A DNA stretch of 64,000 nucleotides from Acidobacteriota bacterium. Its GTDB lineage: Bacteria > Acidobacteriota > UBA6911. How positions within the stretch are numbered: the first letter of the stretch is position 1; every line of letters begins with the position of its first letter. This document shows, piece by piece, positions 30,614 through 50,368 of this stretch. The translations under genes were made by a program, and so were the position numbers. The DNA is taken from contig OY761556.1 of the NCBI GenBank assembly GCA_963664705.1, positions 3,040,001-3,104,000 of the forward strand, written 5' to 3'. The notes under the pieces were generated by a model that worked only from the letters and a program-made list of their open reading frames with translations, did no database searches and was not told the origin of the DNA.

Positions 30614-30636
30614 ATGAATTTAAGAACTCGAACCGT

Positions 30637-32595: not shown

Positions 32596-34509
32596 TCATG
32601 CCTTTGGCCCCAAAAAGCGAGTGTTATCAGGCGATCGTTTTGTAATACCAACCCTGTCCAGATAATCCAGAAGCGGCAGCGCATATTTGCGGGTTGCATC
32701 GATGAGATACTTAAACTGCACGCTTTCCATCCGCTTCTCTTTTTTAATGTGCTCTGTCACCAGTTCCCTTGCTTTTTCCACGGCTTCCGTGTGGAAGTAC
32801 ATATCTCCGGCTACTCGTATAAGGCGCCCATGCTCCGTAAGGAGACGCAGAGCCTCGGCTGCCTCTTTGGTGCCCAGCCCGCAAACTTGCATAACTTCTG
32901 CCCTATCGGGCGGGCTGAATATGCGTTGCAGGAATAGAGACTCCACATCCTGCAGACGTTTCTCTTCTGCAATGTCAAATCGAACGCTGTGCGATGCAAG
33001 AAGCACGCGATCTCCTGTTTTACGAATTTTGCCTCGGGATTCGAGTTCACTCAGCAGCCTTCGAATAACAGGTTTGGGCAGCTTGGATGTGGTTTGGCAG
33101 CTCTCGATTTCCAGCCCGGGGCTGGCCGGATCCTCCCGATGATATTTGGATATCTCTTCCAGCAGTTCCTGCGATAGTCTCTCGAAAGTGTCTGCGTGGA
33201 TAGTAAGGCTTTGCTCGAGGATCATTATCTTTGCGGAGTCGGCAAGCGACTGAACTATTCCCTCTGCGCAGCGTACTGTCTTCTTAATTCTTTGGGCGAT
33301 AGCCTTGATGGTTAATGCCTGGTCTGGGACCGTGCGGATAGCATATTCAGCGAACTCCGCATCGTCTCGCACGGCTTTAGCTCGACAATGCACATCTTCG
33401 AGTACGACGGGCCTGTTTCGTTTCAGCTTTCGTTCCAGCGCTTCGATGATCACTCCACCGCCGATAGTCTGAACGGGCGATAAGCTTCGCAAGATGAAGC
33501 GGTCCATCGGACCGGCCACGATAGGTTGGCTAAGTTGCACCTGCACAAGCGCGCGCTCCCCGCCACGAGAAACATCCCCTTCGAGCGTGTATACGGTTGC
33601 GGTATTCTCCGAAGTGCCGGTATGGAATTTCACCGAAGATCCGTTCTTGAGATACAGCCCATCGAGAGCCAGCATATTCAATTCGCACAAAAATAGATTG
33701 GCCGGAGTGAACCATCCTTCCACTGTAATGACATCCCCCCGGGAAATCGTATCCTGGTCCCATTGCGGCACATTAATCGCGGCACATTGTCCGCATTGCA
33801 CCCGATCCGACTGGGTCGCATAAACCTGAATTGCTTTTATCCTTCCGGTCGAAGCCTGAGGATAAATGATCACCTGTTCTCCCAAGCCGGCGGAACCACT
33901 GACAGGTATGCCGGATACGATCGTTCCATACCCTTTTACCGAGAAGGTGCGCTCGACGGGCAAACGGAATATGCCGTCTGTCTGTTTTGGCTTCAGGTTC
34001 TGAACCAAGTTCGCAAGTCCTTCATAAAACGGCTCGAATCCTTCTCCAGTAATGTTTGAAAAGGGAAAGATCGATGCGTTTTGTAGGAATGTCCCATGAA
34101 GGTAAGTGCGGATTTCCTGAGTAACGGTTTCGACACGCTCCGGAAGGACCTTGTCCACCTTGGTCAAAACGACAACGCCGTGCTGCACACCCAGCAGCGA
34201 CAGGATGTCCAGGTGCTCCCGTGTCTGCGGCATCACGCCATCATCGGCTGCAATAACAAAGATCACGGCATCGATCCCTGTAGCCCCAGCCACCATAGTC
34301 TTGACAAAGTTCTCATGCCCGGGAACATCTACAATCCCCACCTCGAGATCGGCGATTTTCCAGGGAGCAAAACCCAGCTCTATCGACATCCCCCTTTCTT
34401 TTTCTTCTTTCAACCGGTCGGTTTCGCACCCAGTCAGGTTCCCGACCAGGGCTGTTTTGCCATGATCGATATGGCCCGCGGTTCCAAGCGTAATGTTCTT
34501 TTGATTCAT
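32596..34509 (-). CDS. selB: selenocysteine-specific elongation factor SelB
   Basis: GTAGHIDHGKT, DVPGHE, C-terminal winged helix TRKYALPLLDYLD; follows selA. Confidence 0.97.
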   Translation of the reverse strand: MNQKNITLGTAGHIDHGKTALVGNLTGCETDRLKEEKERGMSIELGFAPWKIADLEVGIVDVPGHENFVKTMVAGATGIDAVIFVIAADDGVMPQTREHLDILSLLGVQHGVVVLTKVDKVLPERVETVTQEIRTYLHGTFLQNASIFPFSNITGEGFEPFYEGLANLVQNLKPKQTDGIFRLPVERTFSVKGYGTIVSGIPVSGSAGLGEQVIIYPQASTGRIKAIQVYATQSDRVQCGQCAAINVPQWDQDTISRGDVITVEGWFTPANLFLCELNMLALDGLYLKNGSSVKFHTGTSENTATVYTLEGDVSRGGERALVQVQLSQPIVAGPMDRFILRSLSPVQTIGGGVIIEALERKLKRNRPVVLEDVHCRAKAVRDDAEFAEYAIRTVPDQALTIKAIAQRIKKTVRCAEGIVQSLADSAKIMILEQSLTIHADTFERLSQELLEEISKYHREDPASPGLEIESCQTTSKLPKPVIRRLLSELESRGKIRKTGDRVLLASHSVRFDIAEEKRLQDVESLFLQRIFSPPDRAEVMQVCGLGTKEAAEALRLLTEHGRLIRVAGDMYFHTEAVEKARELVTEHIKKEKRMESVQFKYLIDATRKYALPLLDYLDRVGITKRSPDNTRFLGPKA

Positions 34510-34533: not shown

Positions 34534-35937
34534 TTATAAAATCTGACGTAAGGCTTCGATCACGATGGAATCTTCTCCCGGCAGGAGCGTCCTTGGATCA
34601 AATAACACTTGCTCGTTTTGAATCCTCGCAATGATGGGTATTCGGTGCTGGCGCAGCCTGAGAACCAGCGTCTGCGCGGATATTACTTTTGGAGTGATCA
34701 CCAGCAGTGTTGTTTGAAGGTTCTGGTCGGGCAGAGATCCACTGCCTGTCTGCGAAAATCCCTGAACTGTTTTGATTTCTGCCTGCGGTTGGGCCTCTCC
34801 AAGTTTGGCCGCCAATGTTTCAGCAGCAACCTGAAGATCTTCCGGTTTCCGAAGAATCATCTCGAGTGTGGGAAGTTTACGTTCAGCATTTTTTGAGTCG
34901 AGGAAAAGCCTGAGAGTCGCTTCCAGAGCTGCAAGAGTCAATTTGCCTACCCGCAGAATACGCGCAAACTGGTTTTTCCGGATCGCCGCTATTAAATCCG
35001 ATCTCCCAAGGATGATCCCTCCCTGCGAAGCGCCGATCAGCTTGTCAGCACTGCTGGTTATGAGGTCCGAGCCTGCCGCGATGGATTGTGGCAACGTCGG
35101 TTCCGGTTCAAAGCCATACCTCGACATATCTACCAGGGATCCCGCACCCACATCATCGATCAGAACGAGTTTATGTTTGTGGGCGATCTGTACCATCTCA
35201 TCGAGAGGCACCTCTGAGGTGAACCCGTGGATTTTGTAATTGCTGGGATGCACTCGAAGAAGCGCAGCCGTGTTTTCCGTAATTGCCCTCTCATAGTCCC
35301 TGGCATGCGTTTTGTTCGTGGTCCCGACTTCCACCATCCGGGCGCCGCTGAAGGCCATTACGTCCGGAAGCCTGAACTCTCCACCAATTTCGACGAGCTG
35401 GCCCCTGGACACAATCACCTCCTTACCCTTCGCGATTGTGTTGAGTACAATGGAGGTTGCGGCCGCGTTGTTGTTGACAACGGTAGCGGCCTGCGCGCCG
35501 GTAAGGCGGCAAAGAAGGGTCTCAACGCCTTCATCCCTGGATGATCTTTGGCCTGAACCTAAACCGATCTGGAGCCTGGAGTATCCGGCAAGTTCCTCCC
35601 TTATCTCCTCAAGAGCTTCCTTTGCGAGTACGGCCCGGCCCAGTGCCGTGTGCAAAATTATGCCTGTGGCGTTGATCACCTTTTGATAAAACGGCCGCTT
35701 CATTGAATTCAGGGCGCCGAGAGTCTGGCTGAGGATCTCCTTGGAAATATCGCTTTTGCTCTTGTCCTTATAAGCGCCCTTTTGGATTTTGGCTCGGACC
35801 TTTTCTTTGACCTCGCGCACGGTCAGGGTAATGATTTCGGGGTTGAACCCGATGCCTGCCGATTGCAGTTCCGCTGATTTGAGTATGACGTCAACAGAAG
35901 GAAGATTTCGCAGGGCTTGATTCTCCTGGTTTTTCAT
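34534..35937 (-). CDS. selA: L-seryl-tRNA(Sec) selenium transferase SelA
   Basis: LRNLPSVD, VINATGIILHT, VNNNAAA, SRGQLVEIGGEFRLP, SADKL (PLP Lys). Confidence 0.97.
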   Translation of the reverse strand: MKNQENQALRNLPSVDVILKSAELQSAGIGFNPEIITLTVREVKEKVRAKIQKGAYKDKSKSDISKEILSQTLGALNSMKRPFYQKVINATGIILHTALGRAVLAKEALEEIREELAGYSRLQIGLGSGQRSSRDEGVETLLCRLTGAQAATVVNNNAAATSIVLNTIAKGKEVIVSRGQLVEIGGEFRLPDVMAFSGARMVEVGTTNKTHARDYERAITENTAALLRVHPSNYKIHGFTSEVPLDEMVQIAHKHKLVLIDDVGAGSLVDMSRYGFEPEPTLPQSIAAGSDLITSSADKLIGASQGGIILGRSDLIAAIRKNQFARILRVGKLTLAALEATLRLFLDSKNAERKLPTLEMILRKPEDLQVAAETLAAKLGEAQPQAEIKTVQGFSQTGSGSLPDQNLQTTLLVITPKVISAQTLVLRLRQHRIPIIARIQNEQVLFDPRTLLPGEDSIVIEALRQIL

Positions 35938-36169: not shown

Positions 36170-36520
36170 TAGTTTTTTCAAGGGAGCAATTTTGAAATTT
36201 GGTGCCTTTTGAGGTAAGCGGGGAATGGCGGCAAAGCGAAAGGAATTGCAAAAAGGACCGAAACAAATTATCGTGACGATTCGTTGATTGGACAAGAAAG
36301 TGAGTTTGCCTTGAAAACGGCAGTTTGGAAAACCTGGGAAGGCGGTTGAGTCGCGGCACACGATGCTCGTGGCGAGTTCGCTGGATGCCGGCCCGGGAGT
36401 GGCAATGCCGTAACTGCTTTTTGATTTCATTCCGTTCCATCTCTTAGGCTGCATCACATCCCATTCACAACCACAAAGATCAGCGCGGATTGGTTCCGCC
36501 TCAATTTGTTTCCTTGCCTA

Positions 36521-38143
36521 ATGAGATCTACTATGACGATCAATATTGAGCGACGAAGACGTGCAATGCAGCGTTCTGTTCGCCTGGGGCACTGTGTGTG
36601 CGACCCCGCAAAGCCCTGCCCCTGCGACCTGTTCAAGGAAAAAGACATTTGCCTCTGTGCCGGCGAGCGGTTGGAGGCTCCGGTCGGACCTGTCGCACTG
36701 ACGCAGTTGGTGGAGAAAGCCGGGTGCGCGTCTAAAATCGATCAAGCGTTTCTTAAGGCTACGCTTAATAATTTGCCCACCTTCGATGATCCGCATGTTT
36801 TGGTGGGAATGCCCGCGGGCGATGACGCCGGCGTGTACGAAATTGGAAATGGGATGGCGTTGGTGCAAACCGTGGATGTATTCACGCCTTCTGTAGACGA
36901 CCCATACCTATTTGGTCAGGTGGCAGCGGCTAATTCCCTCAGCGATGTTTATGCTATGGGTGGACGGCCGATCACCGCATTGTCAATTGTCGGATTTCCC
37001 GTGCGCAAGGTCCCGGACAGCGCCCTTCATGAAATAATGCGCGGCGGCATAGATAAAATGAAAGAAGCTGGGGTCCCGGTCATCGGCGGCCACAGTATCG
37101 ATGACGATCAGATAAAGGCAGGCTTTGCCGTAACCGGACTCATCCAAACCGATCAGGTAGCCACGAATGCTAATGCCCAGGTCGGTGACTTGCTAATTCT
37201 GACAAAGCCGCTGGGGACAGGAATTGTGGCCTTCGCCCGGCAAATCGGACGTGCCGAGGAAGAATCGGTAGCCGCTGCCGTGCAATCAATGACAACGCTC
37301 AATAAGGCAGCGGCAGAGCAAATGGCGGCGCACAATGTTCATTCTTGCACAGATGTCACCGGTTTCGGGCTTATGGGGCACTTGTCGGAAATGGCCTTGA
37401 GGAGCGGAGTTGATATTGAACTGCTCTGGGATAGTCTCCCCTGGTTCCCTGGTGTTTTGCAATATGTTGCCGATGGCATTCTTCCGGGAGCCATCGAGCG
37501 AAACAAAGAGTCGTGCGGAGACCGCGTATTTTCCGGCAGCGGGATCAGTGAACTTATGCTGGATATGTGCTTCGATGCTCAAACTTCGGGAGGGTTGCTC
37601 ATGGTGGTCGACCCGAAAAACTCGGAAACGCTTTTAAGCGCGCTACACCTCGCAGGCATCCCGGATGCATGTGTCATCGGCAACGTCCGGCAAAAAGGCG
37701 AAGGCCGCGTCTTTCTTGAAACCAATGGGAGAAGGAGATTACCTATGTCGAAAGATCAATCCAAACCCACTCCAACGCCGCAGGAATCCGCGTGCTGTAC
37801 GGAACAGGCCCAACAAGCTTCCTGCTGCAGCCCTGAAATCCAGACTGCCGGCTGTTGCTCCGGTGAGGCAGAATCAGCCGCCGAGTCGGGCGCGGAAGCA
37901 CTCTATGGGCAGTTTCTTTCCGCGGTAGGAAAGCCCGGAAGTCTGGATGCATTCACCAAACAGGCGATCAACATTGCGTTGGCGGTGGGGACCCGATGTG
38001 AACCCTGCCTAAAAGCCCACATTCAGAAGGCAAAACAAAACGGTTTCACACCGGCCGAGATAGATGAGGCCGCGTGGATGGGGGTGGGATTCGGAGGGTC
38101 GCCTGCTCTGATGATGTATACACGATTAAAAAATAGCAAATAG
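36521..38143 (+). CDS. selD: selenophosphate synthetase SelD with N-terminal Cys-rich extension and C-terminal AhpD/CMD-like domain
   Basis: AGCASKI, DDAGVY, QTVDVFTP, ANSLSDVYAMGG, TDVTGFGLMGH, DAQTSGGLL; C-terminal RCEPCLKAH. Confidence 0.95.
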   Translation: MRSTMTINIERRRRAMQRSVRLGHCVCDPAKPCPCDLFKEKDICLCAGERLEAPVGPVALTQLVEKAGCASKIDQAFLKATLNNLPTFDDPHVLVGMPAGDDAGVYEIGNGMALVQTVDVFTPSVDDPYLFGQVAAANSLSDVYAMGGRPITALSIVGFPVRKVPDSALHEIMRGGIDKMKEAGVPVIGGHSIDDDQIKAGFAVTGLIQTDQVATNANAQVGDLLILTKPLGTGIVAFARQIGRAEEESVAAAVQSMTTLNKAAAEQMAAHNVHSCTDVTGFGLMGHLSEMALRSGVDIELLWDSLPWFPGVLQYVADGILPGAIERNKESCGDRVFSGSGISELMLDMCFDAQTSGGLLMVVDPKNSETLLSALHLAGIPDACVIGNVRQKGEGRVFLETNGRRRLPMSKDQSKPTPTPQESACCTEQAQQASCCSPEIQTAGCCSGEAESAAESGAEALYGQFLSAVGKPGSLDAFTKQAINIALAVGTRCEPCLKAHIQKAKQNGFTPAEIDEAAWMGVGFGGSPALMMYTRLKNSK

Positions 38144-38177
38144 ATCGAGCAGGCAAACAAGTTGACCTAATTCACGC

Positions 38178-38207
38178 TTGACCTTGTATTGCAGGATGCC
38201 GTAAATT
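38178..38207 (+). promoter_or_regulatory. possible sigma70 promoter for tRNA-Sec
   Basis: TTGACC-N18-TAAATT, 7 nt before the tRNA 5' end. Confidence 0.45.
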
Positions 38208-38214
38208 CATCAGC

Positions 38215-38309
38215 GGAGGTGACGGGGGCCCGGTGGCTCCCGCGGTCTTCAAAACCGTTGAGCCGCCTTTAAAGCGGCAGGTGGGTTCAACTCCCATTCG
38301 CCTCCGCCA
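38215..38309 (+). tRNA. selC: tRNA-Sec (anticodon UCA)
   Basis: 95 nt; 8-bp acceptor stem GGAGGTGA/TCGCCTCC; loop CTTCAAA with TCA at 38249-38251; long variable arm; GCCA end. Confidence 0.97.
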
Positions 38310-38341
38310 CTACCCTTTGCTTCACTCCTTATCTCCGCCAA

Positions 38342-39091
38342 TTATCTTGTTGCCCGCAAATATACTCCCTCGGTGTACCTGGATGTGGTGTATCCGGTTT
38401 TGCCGAGAATCTTAGCCGAACGAAATCCGGCTTCGCCTAGTTTCGCCAGGTAGTCCCCACCCGGCAACGCTCCGGCGATTCAGGTCGACCAGGCATCCAT
38501 GCTCGCCAATGTCTCTTCTGGAATGCTTTCTACCACCACAAGATCGGCGGCCACAAAATTTCCGTCCGGACGTAACACCCGAGCGATCTCCCTAAAGGCT
38601 TTATCCTTATCAGGGACCAGGTTTAGAACACCGTTTGAAATCACGAAATCGAATGACGCATTTTCAAAAGGCAATTCTTCAGCCGATCCCTCTTGGAAAC
38701 GAAGGTTTTGCATAGCGGTTTCCGCCCGGGCTTTGCAGGCCCAATCGAGCATTTCGGCCGTAAAATCAATGCCGAAAACCAGTCCCTCCGGCCCCGCCAG
38801 GAGCGCTGAGACAAAAGAGTCAAGACCACAGCCACAGCCGATATCAAGGACTCGCTCTCCTTTACGCACGGAACGGATGCTGAATGGATTCCCCACTCCG
38901 ACGAATCTATCCACGACATCCTTCGGAATAGTACGGATCAACTCACGAGGGTATCCAAGCCGTTCCAAGCTCTCTTGTCCGACAGGATAGGGGAACAGAC
39001 CTTCCGCCTTATGCGAAACACCTCGGTATTTGCTCTTTATGGCAGACTGCAGTCGTTCTTTCCAATTGTCAGCGAAACAATTATCCGTCAC
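38342..39091 (-). CDS. ArsM (arsenite methyltransferase)-like SAM-dependent methyltransferase, selenoprotein (Sec204, UGA at 38480-38482)
   Basis: GVGNP, VLDIGCGCGLD, SNGVLNLVPDK; W-S-T-U-IAGAL matches the ArsM WxxCIAGA motif; frame continues 45 codons to TAA; 11-bp SECIS-like stem TTGCCGGGTGG-GGA-CTACCTGGCGA starts 12 nt after the UGA. Confidence 0.88.
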
Positions 39092-39195
39092 TTAACAGGC
39101 GCTCCCGTGTTGGTTTTCACCCTATAATTCCATTACTGCCTCTAATTGTAGAATCGCTCATGCTATGATAATAATGATTTTGTTGGACAGATACG

Positions 39196-39210
39196 ATGCA
39201 GATTTCGCAT
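39196..39210. promoter_or_regulatory. LysR recognition box ATGC-N7-GCAT
   Basis: perfect T-N11-A dyad overlapping the LysR start, about 65 nt upstream of the start site implied by a TACAAT -10 (39145-39150, minus strand) of the divergent methyltransferase. Confidence 0.55.
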
Positions 39211-40131
39211 AGAATAATTTCCCAACTGAATTTTCAACACTTGCGCACATTCCAGATATTGGCACGCCTTGAGAACTTCTCCAGAACAGGCGATCAAGTC
39301 GGACTATCGCAATCAGCCGTTTCAAGGCACATCAGTGCGTTGGAAGAGGCATTGGGGCTACGGCTATTTGAACGTATCGGACGGCGCGCAATATTGACCT
39401 CGGCCGGAAGAATTTTGCGAGAACGAATTGAGACGCTTATGCGAGAAGCCGATGCTCTGCCGAACATTCTTAAAGATTTGGCAGAAGGGATACAGGGCGA
39501 TCTCAGGATTGGCGCCTGCATTACCGCCGCAAATGCCATTCTTCCGCAAGCTCTCGGGTTGTACAGGCATCAGTACCCACACATCGGGCTTTCACTTCAA
39601 CCGGGCAATAGTTCTGATATTATCGAATGCCTTCGACGGGGTGAGATCGATCTTGCATTTGTTGCCTCGGACAGGTTGCCTTCCGATGTTAAAACTCTGG
39701 CGGAAATTGCGGATGATCTGATTTTATTCGCCTCGCCGGATCACCCAATCTCGATCAAGCGTAACATTGAAGCGAATGATCTCGCTGATTGCGACTTTAT
39801 CCAGCGAGAGGCTCCATCAGACACACACTCGATGGTCACGCGTTGGCTAGAAGCGAAAGGAATTCAGTTGCGAAATCTGATGGATGTGTGGTGACCGGAC
39901 ACTATCAGGCGCCTGGTAGGCGCTGGGTTGGGAATATCTGCACTGTCCCGCCGATTAATTGCGGACGAACTCCTGAAGAGAACTCTTAAGGAGTTGCGAG
40001 TCAAAGGATGGCCGCTGTCCAGGAAAATTCGAATTGCTGTTATGAAGGAGTATTTTTTGTCCAGGGCAACGAAGCAGTTCCTTCAGTTGCTGCGACACAA
40101 GGTCCCGGAGGGACGGTTCTTTGATGCCTAA
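39196..40131 (+). CDS. LysR-type transcriptional regulator with in-frame UGA (candidate Sec233 at 39892-39894)
   Basis: HTH motif LSQSAVSRHISALEEALGLRLFER; read-through gives MDVW-U-PDTIRRLVGAGLGISALS and a typical 311 aa length; hairpin CAGGCGCCT-GGT-AGGCGCTG with its loop 20 nt after the UGA. Confidence 0.85.
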
Positions 40132-40212
40132 TACAGGGAACTCCGACGTCTCAATGGCGAGCCGAAAGAAACCGCAATCTGTTCCGCCAAGCAGTACGTA
40201 GCCGCTTCATGC

Positions 40213-40239
40213 GGCGGGCTTGATCAAACCAAGCCCGCC
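40213..40239. terminator. hairpin between convergent genes
   Basis: GGCGGGCTTG-N7-CAAGCCCGCC, 10-bp stem. Confidence 0.6.
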
Positions 40240-40252
40240 ACACAGTTGTCAC

Positions 40253-41350
40253 TTACTTCTTCTTTTCCGCCCCTCTCTTTCCGCCCAGGTTGAACTGAAC
40301 ACCCAATTGCAGGCTGGTTTTTGCAAAATCTGCAGCTCTTTGGGTATTGGTGAAATCCAACCCGACATATTGATGAAGGCGAACAGGAACAGTGAGGTAG
40401 TAGGTCGCGAACCCCGCATCCCAAGCTATTCCCGGGGAAAGCGAAACCATGTACCCTGGCTGACGGTATCCAGATGTGGCGGTTAAAACGTTATAAACCG
40501 GAACACCAGCAACCTGGCTGCCGACAGACAACGAAAAGCGCTTGAAATGTGGAACAGCCGTGGATATGCCGCCGCTAAACTGGTAGGAATCCGGAGCGGT
40601 CAGATAGCGTACATTTTCCGCAACTGCCTGCGGACCGGCCGGGTTTACGGCCGCACCGAACGCGATGGTGTCGTTTTGCTTTTTGAGACTGAATAGGTAA
40701 AGCCCGCTTCCATAGACGCTGAATCGCCCTATCGAGCGGAACCCTTGAGCAGACAGCCTCAAGCCTAAAGCACCACTGCCAGGCTGAACAGCAGGATACA
40801 CGGGACGATTGATAATATTTGCCCCTTTGGAGTCGGGATAGGGGACCTGATAATTGGACTCCCCGGTTGGCAACCGAAGTCCCAAACCAACACTGATGTT
40901 CTGTTTGGTATTTTTTTCAGGATTCAGCAACCACATCCGGCCGCCAATGACGGCATCGCCGAAACCGTGCACGTGCTGATAATAGCGAGTGCCTGCGACT
41001 ACATTGCTCCAATAAGACCAGAGAACATAGGGAACTTCGGCGGTAAGGTTGATCCTGCGGGAGAGGCCATAGGCTCCCTGTAGATTCAGTGTGTCGCCTC
41101 CCTCCCACACCGAATTTGTCGATATGACGTCGTACCCACGAAACGTCTCATCGGTCGCAAATCGACCCCAATAGCTATTCAACTGAAACTGGCCCTTTTG
41201 CAGGTACGGGCCCATCATGCCGCCACGCATGGGCGACATACTCTTGGACAAAATTCAACCACAGCCCTGCGAGAATGCAGACTGAGGTATGAGTAGAGCG
41301 AGGCCGATTACCATCGGTAACAGCCAGCTCAAGTAATCACACTTCCTCAT
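40253..41350 (-). CDS. exported beta-barrel protein, paralog 1, candidate selenoprotein (signal peptide, then QG-C-G-U; UGA at 41255-41257)
   Basis: AAGGA SD; MRKCDYLSWLLPMVIGLALLIPQSAFS/QGCG-UGA-ILSK in frame with the 332 aa ORF; GFGD...LRLPTG barrel motif; hairpin ATGTCGCC-CATGCGT-GGCGGCAT after the UGA. Confidence 0.85.
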
Positions 41351-41388
41351 CGAAACATTCCTTTCTAGCATAGTTTTCTCTATTGCAC

Positions 41389-41403
41389 ACAAGCAACGTG
41401 CCA
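41389..41403 (-). promoter_or_regulatory. possible sigma54 -24/-12 promoter
   Basis: TGGCAC-N5-TTGT, one mismatch to TTGC. Confidence 0.3.
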
Positions 41404-41494
41404 CATTGTGGTCGAATGAGTCCTTCGCATGCAAATATATTTGAATATTATAATAATGAGAAATACGGATAAGATCTCAGGTAAGGCGGACTGG

Positions 41495-42934
41495 TTATTT
41501 GGAGGGCGCAGCTTCCATATTGGCAATCGCGAACAACTCGCTTCGACTCATGATGTATAAAGCTCCATTCGCAGCAACCGGTGTGCTGTACACAGAACTA
41601 CCCATTAAATTCTTCGCGAGAGTCTTTTGCTTTTTGCCGGCCAGAAAAACAGCAACATCGCCATCTTCATCCGCGAGATATATCTTCCCGTCTGAAAGCA
41701 GCGGAGATCCCCAAATTGCAGACTGCAGATCGTAATTCCAATAGGATTTCCCGGTTTCACTGTCGAGACAATGCAGAACGCCGCTGAAATCGGAGATATA
41801 CACCAACCCATCGGCAATGGCCGCGGTCGAAATAGAGCGGCGGACTTTGTCGCTGTGCCAGACCCGTCCACTTTCGGTGATATCGCCGCTTTGGGATGGA
41901 TCAATACTGTACATATGACCGGGGCCTTCTCCATGTTCCGGATCCTGACCGCTGGGAACGAAGACCCTGTTATTAAAGAAGACCGGAGTAGCAATTCCGT
42001 AATTTTTTGTTTTGGGCCAGACTGCGTTTTTGGGGTTCAAATCAAAGGACCAGAGCCTCTCTCCGGTACGCGCATTGAAGCCGTAGAGCCATCCATCACC
42101 GCCGGGAAAGAAAACCTGCATCGTTCCATTGACTTCACCTAGAGCCGGCGAAGCCCATTGTCCGTGAAGGATATGATCGCCAGGTGAATTATCCTGCCAG
42201 ACAACTTTGCCGGAGTTTTTATTGACAGCAATGAAGCTTGGGGCTTTAGGCGCAAAGACCTTCTCGTGATTTTCCGATACACCGTTTGAGGTCTCCACGA
42301 AAATCAAGTCGCCCCAAATAACCGGCGAGGAGCTGGCCATGTTGTGCGCATAGGTCCCCAACTCCTGCATCATATCGAGCTTCCAGATTACATCCGCATC
42401 CAGTTTGCTTTTATAGGCTTCATTCTGAACCGGACCGTCATTTTTCCCATCTTGAAATCCCTCAGTATCCAGGCAGACGAGTTCGCCGCGATTTGTAACA
42501 TAATAGAGACGCTTTCCTTCCACTGCGGGAGAAGAACACACTCCCTGTTCCGGCCAATCGTTGGCCGGACCTGAATCCAGCTTGTCCGTTACCGCCTGCC
42601 AGAGAAATTGACCGTCAGATTCGCGGAAGCACATCAGGATTCCCTTGTCGTCTTTAATTTCCGGATTTCGCGCATGCGCATTGTTGGTTCCAACAAACAC
42701 TTTTCCGTCTGCAACAACGGGGTTACCGTAGGATGTATCCCCAAGTGCTGCTCTCCATTTTATGTTGCTGCCAGTCTTGAGATCCCAGGTCGAGGGCAGC
42801 CCGACAATGGAACTAATCATATTTCGCTGAACCGATCCTCCCCACATGGGCCAGTCCTGAGATACAAGCGGCAGAATGGAAGCCGCCAGCAATAGGGTTG
42901 CAGCACAAACAATTATAAAGTGCACGTGGCGCAT
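41495..42934 (-). CDS. exported PQQ-binding-like beta-propeller (BamB-like) protein
   Basis: signal peptide, DWPMWGG, repeated SSP...G.VY...G..W blades. Confidence 0.88.
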   Translation of the reverse strand: MRHVHFIIVCAATLLLAASILPLVSQDWPMWGGSVQRNMISSIVGLPSTWDLKTGSNIKWRAALGDTSYGNPVVADGKVFVGTNNAHARNPEIKDDKGILMCFRESDGQFLWQAVTDKLDSGPANDWPEQGVCSSPAVEGKRLYYVTNRGELVCLDTEGFQDGKNDGPVQNEAYKSKLDADVIWKLDMMQELGTYAHNMASSSPVIWGDLIFVETSNGVSENHEKVFAPKAPSFIAVNKNSGKVVWQDNSPGDHILHGQWASPALGEVNGTMQVFFPGGDGWLYGFNARTGERLWSFDLNPKNAVWPKTKNYGIATPVFFNNRVFVPSGQDPEHGEGPGHMYSIDPSQSGDITESGRVWHSDKVRRSISTAAIADGLVYISDFSGVLHCLDSETGKSYWNYDLQSAIWGSPLLSDGKIYLADEDGDVAVFLAGKKQKTLAKNLMGSSVYSTPVAANGALYIMSRSELFAIANMEAAPSK

Positions 42935-43032
42935 GGTCTTCTCGAATATCTTGCGATTATCTCATCGGATCTTGGATCCTTTAAGGTGGCGCTAGTCTGC
43001 CGCCTCAAGGGATCGCCGCACAAAGAACAGGT

Positions 43033-43572
43033 CTAAGGCTTTTCGGCGCCTGTTTTATCCGGGGAAGCATCCAATGCCTCCATGATCTTTGCTTCGAGTG
43101 CCTTCTCGTCCCCTCGGTTGTAACCATTCTGATAAAACAGAACCTCGTTCTTTCTGCCGAGCAGATAGTGGGTCGGTGTCATCGTGAGGCGATAATCATC
43201 CATAAGATCATCTTGGGATACACCCAGCAATACGGGCACGGTTATGTGATATTTCTCCGTCCAGCCTGCAATCAGTTTGCTTTCATCCGGCTTGACGTTG
43301 ATTATGACGTAGGACAACCCTTGTTCCTTATATTTGTCGTATATCTTCAGGACTTCTGGTATCGCAAGATTGCAATAAGCGCAACTTGGATAATAAAAGG
43401 CTACCAGGGTTAATTTGTTTGCAAAATCCGGCAAGGTTTTCGTGATGCCTTCGGGAGTTTTCAGCTTGAACGGTTTAAACTTTTCTGCTGCAGGCCCGAG
43501 GGTCGTTAATAGAATAAGGCAACAGACAGTCAGGATGGTAATTTGAATGCTTTTCCTATCGCTTCTTGTCAT
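43033..43572 (-). CDS. exported TlpA/ResA-like thioredoxin-fold redoxin
   Basis: signal/TM segment, FKLKT, FYYPSCAYC (CxxC), cis-Pro TPTHYLL; AAGGA SD. Confidence 0.85.
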   Translation of the reverse strand: MTRSDRKSIQITILTVCCLILLTTLGPAAEKFKPFKLKTPEGITKTLPDFANKLTLVAFYYPSCAYCNLAIPEVLKIYDKYKEQGLSYVIINVKPDESKLIAGWTEKYHITVPVLLGVSQDDLMDDYRLTMTPTHYLLGRKNEVLFYQNGYNRGDEKALEAKIMEALDASPDKTGAEKP

Positions 43573-43683
43573 TTTGTATTCCTTGCAAATGCACTCATTG
43601 ATCACATTCAGGCAAACAAAAATGTCCGCATAATTCAGCGGGCAGCCACAGATGGCCACCCGCCGAAATAAACAGAATATCAA

Positions 43684-44787
43684 CTATTTTGCTGGTTTCT
43701 TTCCGCCGAGGCTGAAAGTCACGCCGAATTGCAGACTCATTTTATTCAGATTCCCGCTTTGCTGGGTGCCGGTAAAGTCCTTCAATATACCACCCCACAC
43801 ACGGACGGGAACTGTTAGAAAATAGGATCCAAGCTTTGTTCTCAGCGACAGGCCTGGGTTCAATGTTACAAGATATCCTGGCTGCCGATATCCCTCGGAA
43901 CCAGTCAGGACATTAAACGTCGGCACTCCCGCAATCTGGCTGCCCAAAGAGACGGAGAGCCCCTTCAAATGCGGGACAGGCGCGGACATGCCGGCATTAT
44001 ATAGATAGGAATCGGGCGTGGCGTTATAGCGCTTATTCGCCGCTACGGCGTCAGGCCCACCCGGGTTAAATGTGGACATGATTGACTGGGTATTGTTCTG
44101 CTCCTTGAAACTGAACAGATATAGAGCATTTGCATACACAGCGAAATGGCTGAACCTTCGGTATCCCTGCATTGCCACTCGGAGCCCGGCCGCACCGCTG
44201 CCAGGTTGTACGTCCGATTTTGCAGCATGGAGCTTGATATCCTGTCCCAGAATATTGGGGAACATAACCTGATAGTCCGAGTTTCCAGTAGGTAATCTGA
44301 AGGCCAACTGGAAGGCCATGTTCTGTTTTGTATTCTTTTCAGGATTGAAGAGCCATACGCGCCCGCCAATTATGGCATCACCCAGGCCTTTGGTTTTCAT
44401 TTCACGCCGTGAGCCTGCAATGGGATAGTTCCAGTAGGAATCGAGTAAGACCGGAACATCTGCGGTGATGTTGATTCTGCGGGTAAGGGCATACGCGCCC
44501 TGGAAGTTTAAGGATGTGCCACCCTGTTTTGGAGCCGCGTCCGCATTAATGAGGTCGCTCCGCAACTGGGTTCCGGTGAAGTATTGGTCGCTGTTAAACC
44601 GATTCAAACTGCCTTGAATCTGCCATTCTCCCTTTTCCAGATAGGGTCCAAGTAGGCCGCCGCTCATGGGGGCCACATTTCTTGCTAAAATTCAACCACA
44701 ACCTTGTGAAAACGCGCTCTGTGGCGCAAGCAGAGCCAGGCAAAGTGCCCACGGCACCAGCCAGCCCAGCAATTTCATCTTTGTCAT
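43684..44787 (-). CDS. exported beta-barrel protein, paralog 2, candidate selenoprotein (QG-C-G-U; UGA at 44692-44694)
   Basis: AAGGA SD; MTKMKLLGWLVPWALCLALLAPQSAFS/QGCG-UGA-ILAR; UGA is codon 32 in both paralogs; GGCC...GGCC hairpin downstream. Confidence 0.85.
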
Positions 44788-45019
44788 TTCTATTCCTTTC
44801 CATACACAGTTGTTTCAGCATTCAGAAAACCAGTTCATTTGACCAAAGCTTCCTCGCATTATGCAACAAGAAAGTTCTGCCAAATTGAGTAAGGCCAATT
44901 TCGCATACCTCCATAGGTCCGCGGCACTTTTATTGTCCGAAGGCAAATCCTAACTCAGATCTATTTTGCTCCGAAAAGCCTTGCTTCTATTCCCCTATCG
45001 GTGACACACTTATTCTGAC

Positions 45020-45153: not shown

Positions 45154-45669
45154 GTGCAAGACACTGCGAAAGATAAGCCTCTTCTTATTCATCGACTCAA
45201 AACCTTTGATCGGAGCCTCGAAGAATTGCGGCACAAAGCCGGATCTGGTGAAATTGCGGCCAGCAAAGCGGAACAGCTGATTCGGCAGCTTTCGGGATCC
45301 AACGATATCAACTTGCGCAGGCAATTCAGATTTACCCGGAGTGGTGAAAACAGGATTACTTATTGTAGAAAATATGATTTGGGTTGCGGGTATCGGCTTG
45401 TATTCATCAGGAAAGGAGAGCAAATCGCCTTTCTATATGTTGGGACACATGACGACTGCTTTCGTTGGATTAGCCGAAATAGGGGATTTACCTACGAATT
45501 CGTTGATTCAATGAATAATCCCGAGCCTCCACGGCCAGAAGCTGAAACCAATCATTTCTCCGATGAACATCAATATCTTGAAACAGACGAATATGAAGAC
45601 CAGCTGATGCGCAAAATAGATGACAAAATTTTGCGGGTTGTCTTTGCCGGCCTGACAACACAGTCTTAG
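45154..45669 (+). CDS. hypothetical protein with RelE/YafQ-like core and acidic tail
   Basis: RKYDLGCGYRLVF...FLYVGTHD resembles the RelE/YafQ-superfamily C-terminus; GGAG SD before GTG. Confidence 0.6.
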   Translation: MQDTAKDKPLLIHRLKTFDRSLEELRHKAGSGEIAASKAEQLIRQLSGSNDINLRRQFRFTRSGENRITYCRKYDLGCGYRLVFIRKGEQIAFLYVGTHDDCFRWISRNRGFTYEFVDSMNNPEPPRPEAETNHFSDEHQYLETDEYEDQLMRKIDDKILRVVFAGLTTQS

Positions 45670-45845: not shown

Positions 45846-48197
45846 TTAAGCTTTACCAAGCGCTTTAAGCACCTTATCCGGCGTGGCAGGCGGGTCTACC
45901 CATTTATCAATTGCATTGTAAATGGCACAGATGATCATATGTGTGTTTGACATGGAATGGCTGATGCCGTTGGCCCCGTAGGTTCCATTGCCGGCGCGCG
46001 TTTCAACCAGACTCGTCTGTAGCTTCGGCACATCCAGCATGCCCGGTTTTTTGTACTCGATCATGTTGGTATTGAGTTTTACGCCGGTCTGCTTATCGTA
46101 GAAGTAGTCTTCAAACATCTGGCATCCCTGGCTGAAGAACGCAACCTGGTCGAGTTGCCCCTCAAGCGAAATGCGCCTGATTACTTTGCCCGAGTCCACC
46201 GCGGCTCCGTACCTCAGGATTTCCACCTCACCCGTTTCTGTATCGACAGCCACTTCGCAGTACAGAGTATTCAGTGTGTCATACTTGCTGGGCCATAGCG
46301 GTGCGGGAGGATGCCCGGCAAATGTCGCAAATACGTTTGACGAGAGACTCTTGATTGGTACCCCGGCAGTCTTGTCTGACTTGAGTACTATTTTGCCATT
46401 TACTATATCCAGGTCTTCCGGCTTCTTGCCCTTCAACGGGTTTGGAGCCGTCTTTCGCGGCGGTCCGAATCCTCCAGCCGCCGGTTTGTCCGCTTCAGCA
46501 ATCGCCGCTTCAAAAATGCGCTGTCTGAATATCTGGCAGCATTCTTTCATGACCCAACCCGTAGCTACAAGTCCGTCTGCCCCTCCGCTAATAGACACGA
46601 ACATTGCATTGGGATCATAATCAATGCTGATATCCGCAGCTTCCAGGCCGAGCTCTTCTGCGGCAATCATGGCAACGCCTTCAACAGAAAATACCCCAGC
46701 ATGGGGACCCTGGATCGGCATGTGCACAACTCCGTTCCGAAGCTCGAGCACTGCGTGAAAATCACTGCCCATTGCATGCCTTGGGCACATCTGGTATCTG
46801 AAACCGGCCCCGTGCATCCTGCCGTCAGGCAGTTTCTTTGCGCCGTTTTTATGCCAGGTCCAGTTCATCATTTTCTTTCCGGCTTCGATGCAGGCGTCAA
46901 AGCTGGGAACCGATCTTGTGTCCTTCTGTCCGTCAGGCCCATGGAGGTTCAGCCTGGCAATATCGATTGGGTCTTTCCCAAGTTTCTCGGCAATTATATG
47001 AATTGCCATAGTAACGGAGTCCCAATTGAAGGGACAAAATTGCGAACTGAATGGCATCAGACCGCGATTGCTGTCCACGATATCCATTCTCTGCCGGATG
47101 TTAAGGCATTTTGTTCCTATGTACGGTCCGTAACCCTGATCGCCAATAGTCCCGAAAAATGAATTGCCTGTAGTGCCGCCGTCGGCAATAGAGAAATCAT
47201 CGAAAGCGGTAATCAGTCCGTCCTTTGTAAATCCCACCTTCATGTGAATAAAACGCTGCTGAATCATGAAATCAAAGGTGTCCTTGCGTGTGTTTATGCA
47301 ACGCACGGGCCTTCCGGTCCTCTTTGCCAGAAGCGGCGTAATCTGCTGGGATCGTCGTATCGTCCAGTCGCAGTACTTGCCACCCTGAAAGAGCCCTTCC
47401 TGTACCGTCTTTTCCGGCGGCAGACCGTACAATTGTCCGATCGCGTTTTTGCCGCCGCTGGCGTGCCAGACAGCGCCTTCTATATGGAGATTATCTCTTC
47501 CAAGGTAAGGATCATCGAACCACCACGCTACGGAACTGTGCGGATTGGGAGAAGCGGAAGCATACGTAGGCATGTTTAGGTCGTATTCGATAATGTAATC
47601 GGCTTCCTTGAAACCTTGCTCTACATCTCCCTGGTTTTGATTTGAATAGGAAACATTCCCTTTTTTCGGAGGATTGTTATTCCCTCCCCCACCGAAAGGA
47701 TTGCTGGGACCGCCTCTATCCTCGGGCCGAATCACCGGAGCGCTGGCTTCTCTTCCCGCTTTGATATCCACGACATGCGGAAGGATTTCCCATTCCACAT
47801 TAAGTGCCTTTAAAGCCTCATCGCAGATATCTCCATTTTCCGCTACCACAATGAATCCCACTTCTATGTTTTCTTCTTCTGCAACATCGGAAATAAAAGG
47901 CTGGGGCGCACCGCCCATGCCGCCACGCTGCAGCTTTTTTAAGTCTTCATCCTTCCATGTGACGATATCCACAACTCCGGGAACAGCCTTGGCTTTTTCG
48001 AGATTGAAACTTTTTATCCTTGCGTGCGCATGAGGACTGCGCAGAAATTTGGCTTCGAGCATATTGGGAACGACATAATCGATTCCGAATTTAGCGAGAC
48101 CCGAGGCAACTGCCCATGACAGTTTGCCGGGCAGGTTTGCCCTGCCGACTACCCTGAAATCCTCTCTTTGTCCGTTAGTTCCTGTTAAATCAGCCAT
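45846..48197 (-). CDS. xanthine dehydrogenase-family molybdopterin-binding subunit (atypical active-site motifs)
   Basis: LRSPHAHARI, LAKRTGRPV, EVAVDTETGEV, VDSGKVI. Confidence 0.88.
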   Translation of the reverse strand: MADLTGTNGQREDFRVVGRANLPGKLSWAVASGLAKFGIDYVVPNMLEAKFLRSPHAHARIKSFNLEKAKAVPGVVDIVTWKDEDLKKLQRGGMGGAPQPFISDVAEEENIEVGFIVVAENGDICDEALKALNVEWEILPHVVDIKAGREASAPVIRPEDRGGPSNPFGGGGNNNPPKKGNVSYSNQNQGDVEQGFKEADYIIEYDLNMPTYASASPNPHSSVAWWFDDPYLGRDNLHIEGAVWHASGGKNAIGQLYGLPPEKTVQEGLFQGGKYCDWTIRRSQQITPLLAKRTGRPVRCINTRKDTFDFMIQQRFIHMKVGFTKDGLITAFDDFSIADGGTTGNSFFGTIGDQGYGPYIGTKCLNIRQRMDIVDSNRGLMPFSSQFCPFNWDSVTMAIHIIAEKLGKDPIDIARLNLHGPDGQKDTRSVPSFDACIEAGKKMMNWTWHKNGAKKLPDGRMHGAGFRYQMCPRHAMGSDFHAVLELRNGVVHMPIQGPHAGVFSVEGVAMIAAEELGLEAADISIDYDPNAMFVSISGGADGLVATGWVMKECCQIFRQRIFEAAIAEADKPAAGGFGPPRKTAPNPLKGKKPEDLDIVNGKIVLKSDKTAGVPIKSLSSNVFATFAGHPPAPLWPSKYDTLNTLYCEVAVDTETGEVEILRYGAAVDSGKVIRRISLEGQLDQVAFFSQGCQMFEDYFYDKQTGVKLNTNMIEYKKPGMLDVPKLQTSLVETRAGNGTYGANGISHSMSNTHMIICAIYNAIDKWVDPPATPDKVLKALGKA

Positions 48198-48255
48198 TGT
48201 ATACCCCCATGATTAATTGCAGCGCTGCGTAGGTTGCGATAATGTAATTAGATTG

Positions 48256-49299
48256 CTAAGCTAATTTTTCCAGAATCGGCTGTAATCTTGATGGCTCCAG
48301 TCCGATTGAAAAGGCGTTGATACCTTCCATAATTTTGAAAGATCCTGATTCAGACTTCGCGTCCATAATCAGTACATTCCCTCCAAAGCGTGGTTTCATA
48401 ATTCCCACACGGTGTTGAACCTGCCCAATGGTTTCAGAGTCAGTGAGGTTCTTTTCCATTAAAGACTCTATTGTGAGATCCGGCCCATTGATTGTCCGCT
48501 TATGCATATCCGCGTATACCGGCGTTTTGTTCACATCCGGAACAACGGACAGAAAGATCACTCTGGAATCAAGCACAGAAGATGTATCGCCGTTGCGATT
48601 CCGCAGCAGTCTTTGGGTTGCAATCTCAACCGGAACATAGTAAGAATCCACTTCTCTGGCCAAAGGCATCTTAAAAGCTATATATCTGCCCAGTTTTTTC
48701 GAATGGAGAACAAATTCCGGGATGCGCTTTGCAGGGTGATGGAACTGACGTCCGAAAGCAATTTCTCCGATTTCGACAACAAGAGGCTTATTGTCGGCAT
48801 CGAGAGCGACCCCAAGAATTCCATCAGGTTCGAGCTCAACGGTAAGGGCAAGCGCAACCCAGGCTTCATACCCTCTCCGAAACATTGCTGTTGTATCTAC
48901 GATAAGATCGTTTCCCACAACCCATTCAAAATCACCCTCAGGTATTTTCCCCTGAACCAGTTCAAATAGCCGGTTGTATATGAGGCGCATCATCCCTTGT
49001 TGGGGATTGTGAAGAAAGCTGGACAGATCGAGCGGCAACTGAATTTTGCAATTTAGTGTATTGGACAACCTGGTTTCAGACTCAATGTAATTTTGCGAGA
49101 GAGCGAAAATGTCCAATGCAAATGAACGGCTCCATGATTCGACGATTGCCGCTCGGACGTTGTCAAAATGCGCATAGAATCTGTCACGCCGATCTTTAGG
49201 AATGTGCACTTCATGTGGAGAAATATGGATTTCCGGGTTTGACGAAATGAATTCACTCAGAATCCCATACTCGCGTTTCCACTTTGGATCAAGAGTCAT
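48256..49299 (-). CDS. hypothetical protein inserted between the XDH-family FAD and Mo subunit genes
   Basis: 347 aa ORF; visibly more AT-rich than its neighbours. Confidence 0.65.
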   Translation of the reverse strand: MTLDPKWKREYGILSEFISSNPEIHISPHEVHIPKDRRDRFYAHFDNVRAAIVESWSRSFALDIFALSQNYIESETRLSNTLNCKIQLPLDLSSFLHNPQQGMMRLIYNRLFELVQGKIPEGDFEWVVGNDLIVDTTAMFRRGYEAWVALALTVELEPDGILGVALDADNKPLVVEIGEIAFGRQFHHPAKRIPEFVLHSKKLGRYIAFKMPLAREVDSYYVPVEIATQRLLRNRNGDTSSVLDSRVIFLSVVPDVNKTPVYADMHKRTINGPDLTIESLMEKNLTDSETIGQVQHRVGIMKPRFGGNVLIMDAKSESGSFKIMEGINAFSIGLEPSRLQPILEKLA

Positions 49300-49319
49300 A
49301 AATATCTTGTCTATGAACC

Positions 49320-49394
49320 GTCCATCGGGTCGGAATCGGAATCGAAATTAGGCTTCCAACCCCAATACCGATTCCGACCGCGAATCCGATGGAC
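49320..49394. repeat. imperfect inverted repeat containing GGAATC hexamers
   Basis: TCCATCGG-GTCGGAATCGG...CCGATTCCGAC...CCGATGGA. Confidence 0.55.
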
Positions 49395-49405
49395 ATTCTA
49401 AATGG

Positions 49406-50356
49406 TTAGACAGTTGCCAGGAGCGCTCGTTTGACGAGCGTCTTTGCGATCTGCACTTTGTACTTGGTGGCACTCAACGGCTTGGCGTCTTCAACCGCAG
49501 CCGCGCCGGCCGCTTCGGCATTGGCTTCATTGATAGCCTTGCCTGCGATCGCCGCTTCGGCCTTGACCGCGCGATACGGTTTCGGGGCAACGGCATTCAG
49601 AGCAATCCTCGGAGCTCCTCCCCCCACCATCACGGCACAGTTGACGATCGGGAAATCGATCGACTTGCGGATGGCGAATTTGAGGAAAGCGCTCTTGGCA
49701 CCGGCCGGAGGGGTCGGGACCTGGATTTCGGTGATGAATTCGCCGGCAGCGAGAACGGTGTTGCCGGGGAATTTGACATCAAAGAAATTCTCGGCATTGA
49801 TCTTGCGCGTGTTGGTCACCACGGAGGCATTCAAAGCAATGAGAGCCGGGGCGACGTCGCTGGGATGAACGGCGATGCATTTGTTGACGTTGCCGAAGAT
49901 GGAGTGATAGCGGTTGTCGCCCATCATAGCAAAGCAGGTTGTGCCACCCTTGCGGACGCAAGGGAACCGGTTTTCCGGCTTCCGGAAGTACCAGCAGCGG
50001 TGGAGCTGAGCGATGTTGCCGCCGATGGTGCCCATGTCGCGGACATGGGGCGTGGCGACGCGCAGAGCTGCCTGAGCCAGAGCGGTGTATTTCGCATTGA
50101 TGTCCTTGTTGGCTGCGACATCCGCAAGGCGTGTGGCGGCGCCGATTTTCAGGATACCGGCTTCTTCCTTGATGTAATCGAGACCCGGGGTAACGGTCTT
50201 GATGTTAATCACGGCTTCGGGGTACGTGGGAAGGATGTTGTCCTTGAGCCGGCCGATGAGATCGGTGCCCCCGGCAATGATTTCTGTTTTTCCGCCGGCA
50301 AGGGCAGTTTTGACCTCGGCCAGGGTTTTTGCATTCGTATGATTGAAACCTTTCAT
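49406..50356 (-). CDS. xanthine dehydrogenase-family FAD-binding subunit (PaoB/YagS-like, with 4Fe-4S insert)
   Basis: IAGGTDL, MGTIGGNI, RCWYFR...C..KGG..C...C insert. Confidence 0.92.
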   Translation of the reverse strand: MKGFNHTNAKTLAEVKTALAGGKTEIIAGGTDLIGRLKDNILPTYPEAVINIKTVTPGLDYIKEEAGILKIGAATRLADVAANKDINAKYTALAQAALRVATPHVRDMGTIGGNIAQLHRCWYFRKPENRFPCVRKGGTTCFAMMGDNRYHSIFGNVNKCIAVHPSDVAPALIALNASVVTNTRKINAENFFDVKFPGNTVLAAGEFITEIQVPTPPAGAKSAFLKFAIRKSIDFPIVNCAVMVGGGAPRIALNAVAPKPYRAVKAEAAIAGKAINEANAEAAGAAAVEDAKPLSATKYKVQIAKTLVKRALLATV

Positions 50357-50368
50357 GAGTGTCTCCTC

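Follow-up and report, generated by a model that had tools for sequence, protein, structure and literature searches.

Paralogous predicted outer-membrane beta-barrel proteins with a probable N-terminal selenocysteine and a likely thioredoxin-like partner in an Acidobacteriota genome

In this work we analysed a stretch of 64,000 nucleotides from an Acidobacteriota bacterium of the UBA6911 lineage (assembly GCA_963664705.1, contig OY761556.1, positions 3,040,001 to 3,104,000; hereafter, the window), in which two genes, A and B, encode paralogous exported proteins with an in-frame UGA shortly after a predicted signal peptide (Table 1). We consider that both very likely belong to a real and new selenoprotein family of barrels resembling the COG4313 and FapF channels, with a thioredoxin partner. 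On balance, we favour the reading that these proteins would be channels bearing a reactive selenocysteine (Sec) on an N-terminal arm, kept reduced by the neighbouring thioredoxin-like protein.

A preliminary description of this DNA had proposed two exported paralogues with a UGA at codon 32, an ATG preceded by a Shine-Dalgarno sequence, a signal peptide, a hairpin whose loop lies about 24-25 nt 3' of the UGA, and a body with GFGD or GLGD, RLPTG and LQxGVxF motifs. All these elements are present in both genes. Each of them contains a single in-frame TGA, the sequence GAAAGGA lies 6-8 nt 5' of the ATG, and the hairpins span +17 to +37 with the loop near +24 to +30. As read from the sequence, the two proteins begin with a 27-residue stretch of the type I signal-peptide kind ending in PQSAFS, followed by Q-G-C-G-U-IL. 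The gene calls made with translation table 11 begin 3' of the UGA and have no signal peptide. The paralogues share 52% identity and are the sole copies in the genome (6.89 Mb), where no Cys paralogue was found. Over 38100-45000 the window agrees without a mismatch with contigs of two runs made on the sample that is its probable source, and a run belonging to another study (X5) yielded short contigs that are identical at both UGA sites. An error of the assembly is thus excluded as the origin of the TGA.

By itself the pattern is weak, as a loose filter (an upstream Met, a hydrophobic stretch, a TGA and then at least 250 open codons) passes 21 of the 2532 TGA sites of the genome. What settles that the TGA is not a product of chance, as judged by comparison, is the corresponding column in the homologous genes. 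Among 69 distinct genes, gathered from genomes of the class, a sample of the phylum and metagenome contigs, this position is TGA in 54, the Cys codon TGC in 15, and no other codon in any of them (46 QG-U, 7 QGCG-U, 1 QC-U, 14 QG-C and 1 QS-C; one of the QG-U genes comes from the unpublished genome G081, on which no claim rests). The column thus keeps Cys or UGA, the point on which the preliminary description had made the selenocysteine reading depend. The TGA persists between intact frames in these 54 genes, even where identity falls to about 22%, and the Sec and Cys forms are interleaved on a quick maximum-likelihood tree, which requires the Cys label to have changed at least 9 times. In the class survey, the family was present in 23 of 137 genomes. 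Of the first 31 loci collected, 29 carry Q-G-TGA, Q-G-C-G-TGA or Q-C-TGA, and the other two (L024/L031, in G064:C11) represent one apparently frameshifted member whose N-terminus is out of view and which was left out of the 69.

The best 23 of 56 database matches are calls of 322-337 aa that begin after the UGA codon, and more distant ones start with a signal peptide followed by Q-G-C. An exhaustive search with the family profile produced 455 clusters (50% identity, E<=1e-30), in which the Cys and Sec forms are counted jointly; among the best 150 representatives, 71 are calls cut short at the N-terminus, and of the 79 intact ones 78 carry the N-terminal Cys.

Regarding the machinery for selenocysteine, a full-length member was present in 35 genomes from outside the class. 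All 23 of them that have the TGA form gave a selA match; the other 12 have the TGC form only, and in 8 of these no selA was found. Within the class, 21 of 22 carriers other than the source genome have selA. The source genome itself contains two sets of selA, selB, selD and true tRNA-Sec, and both tRNA-Sec genes look intact. The set in the window, which lies 2-8 kb from gene B, is the second complete selABCD of the genome; its SelD is extended at the N-terminus by a Cys-rich segment, ends in an AhpD/CMD tail and is 76-82% conserved in loci L078, L084 and L086. The other SelD of the genome, outside the window, has a UGA at the catalytic site.

The hairpin was evaluated as a selenocysteine insertion sequence (SECIS) at the family level, scoring a stem of +17 to +23 paired with +31 to +37 as present when at least 5 of its 7 pairs formed. 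This stem was found in 46 of 51 TGA genes versus 1 of 15 TGC genes. Furthermore, two-sided changes occur in 6 of the 7 pairs, 86% of the cells are paired versus 24-50% in slid controls, and a C stands at +24 in each of the 51 TGA genes versus 5 of 15 TGC genes. The case for a SECIS rests on this family comparison, because neither window hairpin stands out alone. With the homologue column, the hairpin and the sel genes behind it, the preliminary assignment stands, and the UGA of genes A and B almost certainly encodes a selenocysteine, with the hairpin presumably decoded by SelB.

We regard it as very improbable that the UGA is a true stop or another residue (pseudogenes, Trp or Cys suppression, or a split gene whose second part starts 3' of the UGA), or that the Cys is the attachment site of a lipoprotein. 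It is true that gene callers begin both proteins at downstream codons, that x-Q-G-C is loosely lipobox-like and that the hairpin of gene A is weak by itself. However, the TGA occupies one column across divergent genes with open frames, products from downstream starts would be devoid of an export signal, no credible tRNA with a UCA anticodon was found beyond the two tRNA-Sec, and the residues at -3 and -1 suit cleavage by signal peptidase I before Gln. In this respect, all 66 family genes have A, G or S as the residue before the cleavage site.

A suppressor tRNA as an alternative means of decoding was considered and rejected: a third UCA-anticodon candidate of 72 nt reported by ARAGORN has a broken acceptor stem and an odd loop. 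We observed a degenerate tRNA-like element of 72 nt with a UCA anticodon at G000:C1:1625651-1625722 and, at 2597966-2598055, a 90-nt tRNA-like element that has a long variable arm and whose anticodon is unassigned. An in-frame UGA within a U-G-S-C motif was also observed in G000:C1 near 1728094 (minus strand), probably belonging to the known UGSC selenoprotein family (name taken from a table of PMC13188914).

The arrangement is comparable to the recoding of E. coli fdhF, with an in-frame UGA, an in-frame hairpin having a G in the loop and lying about 16-37 nt 3' of the UGA, selABCD and Cys orthologues. The difference is that in the family of the window the Sec would lie 3-5 residues past the cleavage site of the signal peptide, and that its SECIS overlaps a conserved A-P-V-x-G peptide. 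Without selenium, genes A and B would yield just a 31-residue peptide. The selenium-gated expression put forward in the preliminary description would therefore be the ordinary result of UGA decoding, with no Cys backup copy; the same is true of any selenoprotein and does not by itself indicate regulation.

Another aspect to mention is the extent of the conserved motif, which had been described as CxU. The Cys two residues before the Sec occurs in only 7 of the 54 Sec genes, one further gene has C-U, and the remaining 46 have a plain Q-G-U; the Cys forms are mostly plain Q-G-C. Because C-G-U is limited to these 7 genes of one subclade, the conserved unit of the family is, on the alignment, a single selenol or thiol (QG-U/QG-C), and the extra Cys is an addition of the subclade. 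The Sec/Cys is the only such site in 49 of 57 mature sequences.

With respect to the fold, the AlphaFold models, built with alignments of 79 and 109 sequences, are beta-barrels with a mean predicted local distance difference test score (pLDDT) of 90.5 for A and 91.3 for B. Foldseek placed FapF first (E 1e-12) and the COG4313 channel 4RL8 next. After structural re-alignment 4RL8 (Pput2725) was at the top (Z 24.6, root-mean-square deviation 2.7 over 257 residues, model 11-328 on chain 1-268), followed by FapF (Z 21.8) and autotransporter barrels; FapF was also retrieved by profile (E 2.5e-11). From these models, the bodies of A and B are very probably 12-stranded outer-membrane barrels of the COG4313/FapF type, and the likeness to MetA-pathway/SphA-like channels suggested in the preliminary description is borne out by the match to 4RL8. 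In both window proteins 27 residues precede the first strand. The N-terminal segment of Pput2725, 14 residues long, enters the lumen from the periplasm and is folded inside it (available text of PMC4493636), and FapF has a helical plug on the periplasm side that regulates opening (available text of PMC5557850). Since the N-terminus is in the lumen in the former and the latter is plugged from the periplasm side, the N-terminal arm is probably a plug here too, and by this analogy the Sec might lie in the lumen.

It should be noted that the window proteins are COG4313-like in architecture and belong to a related superfamily, and we do not file them as members. Neither of them matched PF13557 (Phenol_MetA_deg), while 2 of 15 homologues were above the cut-off of this model and 3 more below it. 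They are 14% identical to the COG4313/PF13557 channels (Pput2725, PDB 4RL8; SphA; TcpY), with a mature length of 338-340 residues versus 270-320, and no aromatic-catabolism context surrounds them. In addition, the window family has an invariant N-terminal Cys/Sec, a SECIS and a thioredoxin partner, none of which is mentioned for COG4313 in the available text of PMC4493636. With FapF (PDB 5O65/5O67/5O68; NCBIfam NF058560) they share a predicted 12-stranded barrel, plugged in FapF and probably here, and a PTG motif, but they have no long N-terminal coiled coil and a fap operon was not seen; scores with NF058560 are at most 38 bits versus a cut-off of 700, which places them outside FapF. No NCBIfam model was matched by the two window proteins.

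Immediately downstream of gene A, and between the paralogues, lies a gene for an exported TlpA/ResA-like protein, which is likely the partner of the barrels, as linkage and fusion suggest. A CxxC thioredoxin-fold gene was found within 1.3 kb of 13 of 66 barrel genes (11 downstream on the same strand and 2 divergent; 4 of the 66 had less than 600 nt of downstream sequence), near both Sec and Cys forms, compared with 0 of 600 random one-strand windows. This gene follows the barrel in L084 and L086 too. In 54 wider loci, thioredoxin was the most frequent neighbour cluster besides histidine-kinase/signalling proteins (9 loci). Furthermore, a CxxC thioredoxin domain is fused to the C-terminus of the barrel in 4 of the 150 representatives (P0285, P0311, P0335 and P0392), the one of P0311 being 48% identical to the window TlpA, and in P0290 two HMA CxxC domains are fused to the barrel. 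The calls of P0311 and P0290 are truncated at the N-terminus, and both proteins may represent the Sec form. The C-terminus of such barrels is periplasmic. The situation resembles that of the periplasmic TlpA/ResA/DsbE reductases, in which an exported CxxC fold is found beside, or fused to, its presumed substrate; here, unlike the apocytochromes or copper proteins, the presumed substrate would be the N-terminal Sec/Cys of an outer-membrane channel.

On these bases the following course of events can be proposed. The genes carry what decoding would need, that is, the Shine-Dalgarno sequence, the signal peptide, Q-G-C-G-UGA, the hairpin and complete sel genes nearby. SelB would read the hairpin and insert Sec, and signal peptidase I would cut before Gln28, leaving the Sec as mature residue 5 (residue 3 in most members), steps which we take as nearly certain. 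The body would very probably fold as a COG4313/FapF-type barrel, and by analogy with Pput2725 the 27-residue arm would hang on the periplasmic side and could enter the lumen. It is then reasonably likely that the selenol would react with a compound entering the pore or be oxidised, giving a mixed bond (here, a selenenylsulfide between Cys30 and Sec32), and that the CxxC of TlpA would reset it and free the cargo. More tentatively, the cargo might be a thiol-reactive soft species (a soft metal or metalloid, an organometalloid or a sulfur/selenium compound) and not a hydrocarbon. In a wider version, which we hold as doubtful, the barrels would be selenoenzymes that are catalysts and channels at once, through which the electron chain of the periplasmic thioredoxins would reach as far as the outer membrane. 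Cargo would be caught on the selenol in the pore and freed by a dedicated and sometimes fused TlpA, and the module would here be part of a self-contained sel island (the second selABCD set) possibly under the control of a Sec-containing LysR regulator.

Several results weigh against this interpretation. On the side of the selenocysteine, the window hairpins taken singly do not exceed dinucleotide shuffles (z 0.14 and -1.32), and that of gene A is weak, with only 4 of 7 pairs in the family register. Compared with synonymous-codon controls, the gain in stability was modest (the mean z was -1.06, and p<=0.05 was reached by 4 of 51 genes, which include neither A nor B), and hence much of the stability of the hairpin is carried by the conserved A-P-V-x-G peptide. 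As for the sel genes, 7 of the 8 selA-less genomes are of one family and do not represent 8 independent events, selA is near-universal in the class (125 of 137 genomes) and thus uninformative there, and genome G085 (92% complete) has a TGA form yet no selA match. The representative P0399 is devoid of the N-terminal Cys. On the side of the channel and its partner, residues 1-19, which hold C-G-U, the putative gate of the preliminary description, have a pLDDT below 50 in both models, 53 of the 66 barrel genes have no thioredoxin gene within 1.3 kb, 9 of the 13 thioredoxin matches seeded the profile that counted them, and the characterised COG4313 channels are tied to hydrophobic organics in the available text of PMC4493636.

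The cargo is where other explanations compete. An unlikely one is that the Sec itself coordinates soft metals or metalloids (Cu(I), Hg(II), As(III)) within a channel for uptake or detoxification, with C-G-U as a bidentate site that TlpA protects from oxidation. Some loci would fit: the P0290 protein with its fused HMA domains, a second copy in genome G116 (C-G-U) located 350 nt after arsF-arsG-arsE/hgcA-hgcB on the same strand and near acr3 and arsC, an SO_0444-like efflux permease (below cut-off) divergent from the L080 copy, and an ArsM-like Sec methyltransferase 1.2 kb from gene B. However, each of these cases comes from one locus out of 54 wider neighbourhoods, whose clustering brought up no recurrent metal gene; the single Cys/Sec of most members would be a weak chelator, and there are four thioredoxin fusions for one HMA fusion. 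The metal or metalloid binding suggested in the preliminary description is left with scattered backing (one HMA fusion and one hgcAB/ars neighbourhood), while the thioredoxin partner, absent from that description, is much better backed.

The C-G-U subclade could also be a selenium-acquisition channel for the second sel operon, in which selenite or selenide would be taken on the selenol and passed via TlpA to SelD-AhpD, a proposal that we find rather improbable. The barrel-TlpA pair stands beside selD-AhpD in four assemblies (the window, L078, L084 and L086), with selA-selB there as well in the window and L086; G116 and G122, of the same genus and carrying the subclade, have two selA matches like G000; and ExtI of Geobacter, a porin involved in selenite uptake, is a precedent (available text of PMC5877670). 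Nevertheless, the four assemblies are close kin and their linkage may be that of one mobile block, and an IS256 element lies 7 kb upstream; a channel that itself needs selenium would be absent when most needed; and Cys forms persist in genomes where selA was not found, so that the family at large cannot have this role.

Even less probable, in our opinion, is that the channel is an ordinary one of the COG4313 type, passing hydrophobic organics or secreted peptides, in which the Sec/Cys has no contact with the cargo and serves on the plug only as a structural anchor or redox switch. This would be consistent with the closest structures, Pput2725 and FapF, being plugged from the periplasm by N-terminal segments (available text of PMC4493636 and PMC5557850). 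Against this, no aromatic-degradation or fap-like genes recurred in the neighbourhoods, and the repeated use of the costly Sec usually marks a catalytic residue.

In the 54 wider loci (52 with a barrel call), where 31 selected proteins of 416 open reading frames were examined by Pfam, no family-wide metal or arsenic neighbourhood was found, and only TlpA, signalling, FG-GAP/TPR and TonB-type proteins recurred. At L001 4143-8609 (G116), the C-G-U barrel is 3' of the arsF-arsG-arsE/hgcA-hgcB genes with acr3-arsC divergent, in a mercury-methylation/organoarsenical cluster. At L079 6085-9316 (G076), a Sec barrel is immediately followed by tusA-like, dsrE-like and methionine-synthase-like genes, in a sulfur-relay context, and the L080 copy faces the SO_0444-like permease. 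In every case these scattered clues on the cargo (ars/hgc, tusA-dsrE, selD-AhpD and the permease) suggest a chemistry of thiol-reactive metal(loid)s or chalcogens, and none of them is family-wide.

The other features of the window are listed in Table 1. The exported beta-propeller encoded between the paralogues is probably accessory. The ArsM-like methyltransferase is a single-domain protein that resembles known selenoprotein families; its best NCBIfam models (NF041537, NF041536 and NF047649) were all below cut-off, and two Cys paralogues occur elsewhere in the genome. Just downstream of selB, 29735-32369 encodes a corrinoid protein, an MtaA/CmuA-like methyltransferase and a 292-aa exported protein ending in Phe, this last one being a possible second type of barrel. 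Upstream of gene A there are a ParE-like gene (45154-45669), a cluster for a molybdoenzyme of the xanthine-dehydrogenase family (45846-51091) and an IS256 transposase (51617-52798). The sel island may be mobile.

Table 1. Features of the window around genes A and B (positions counted from the first nucleotide of the window).
Feature	Position	Strand	Remarks
selB	32596..34509	minus	TIGR00475 over cut-off
selA	34534..35937	minus	TIGR00474 over cut-off
selD with C-terminal AhpD/CMD-like domain	36506..38143	plus	TIGR00476 and TIGR00778 over cut-off
tRNA-Sec (selC)	38215..38309	plus	anticodon UCA; Rfam RF01852, 70.6 bits
ArsM-like methyltransferase	38342..39091	minus	in-frame UGA 38480-38482; UxxG-type Sec site; hairpin z -3.41
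LysR-type regulator	39196..40131	plus	UGA codon 233 (39892-39894), followed by GCGCC/GGCGC hairpin; convergent with barrel cluster
Gene B, paralogous exported beta-barrel selenoprotein (predicted)	40253..41350	minus	365 aa; mature N-terminus Q-G-C-G-U
Gene B, SECIS-like hairpin	41218..41238	minus	7/7 family pairs
Gene B, in-frame UGA, codon 32 (predicted Sec)	41255..41257	minus	extra Cys30 at 41261-41263
Gene B, predicted signal peptide	41270..41350	minus	residues 1-27; from sequence
Gene B, Shine-Dalgarno-like GAAAGGA	41359..41365	minus	
PQQ_2-type beta-propeller, exported	41495..42934	minus	close paralogues elsewhere in genome
TlpA/ResA-like thioredoxin-fold protein	43033..43572	minus	CAYC; hydrophobic N-terminal export-like segment; Pfam Redoxin/AhpC-TSA over cut-off
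Gene A, exported beta-barrel selenoprotein (predicted)	43684..44787	minus	367 aa; mature N-terminus Q-G-C-G-U
Gene A, SECIS-like hairpin	44655..44675	minus	+17 to +37; shifted register, 4/7 family pairs
Gene A, in-frame UGA, codon 32 (predicted Sec)	44692..44694	minus	extra Cys30 at 44698-44700
Gene A, predicted signal peptide	44707..44787	minus	residues 1-27, ending A-F-S; from sequence
Gene A, Shine-Dalgarno-like GAAAGGA	44794..44800	minus	

A side finding of the analysis is the LysR-type regulator next to gene B. When read through its UGA, the protein spans NF040786 from end to end (residues 11-301, below cut-off). Among 113 database matches, 106 end exactly one residue before the UGA codon (51-100% identical, one being the call of the window itself), and one, apparently frameshifted, retains the downstream part. 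Homologous DNA was not found in the 137 genomes of the class, the samples of 401 genomes of the phylum and 301 of the order, plasmids, or viral contigs (one distant match), and no Cys orthologue was seen among the matches. The conserved end of these calls suggests, with good probability, that this LysR is a candidate selenoprotein transcription factor of a widespread family. The word LysR is absent from the main text of the 2026 selenoprotein review, whose family table contains no LysR or DNA-binding regulator (PMC13188914), and our literature search found no LysR selenoprotein described.

Concerning the novelty of the barrels, the family is absent from Table 1 of that review, which contains 119 families (PMC13188914), and it is not mentioned in the available parts of a 2022 selenoprotein review or of deep-Sep. 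No selenoprotein model of NCBIfam r20 was matched by the window proteins or by 15 homologues tested. The literature search, whose scope excluded supplementary lists, which could bear on novelty, and most subscription papers, found no description of the family as a selenoprotein. Two barrel-type selenoproteins are catalogued, GSU2204/MtrB-PioB (NF041027) and the TonB-dependent receptor FCYXU (NF049945) (PMC13188914). They resemble the proteins described here in having a predicted Sec in an exported protein of beta-barrel type, but the window proteins and the 15 homologues match neither model and differ in size, motif and context. Public proteins of the family are truncated at the UGA and named hypothetical, and in this form are devoid of the signal peptide and the active residue.

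Taken as a whole, these genes represent a large Cys/Sec family, frequent in a phylum of major importance in soils and sediments. If the proposed reading is true, a selenol channel recycled by thioredoxin would be a new coupling of redox chemistry to passage through the outer membrane, and the Cys forms that have TlpA beside them or fused to them offer a direct way of testing such a relay. Likewise, the neighbouring LysR, given its conserved UGA, could be a transcription factor that contains selenium.

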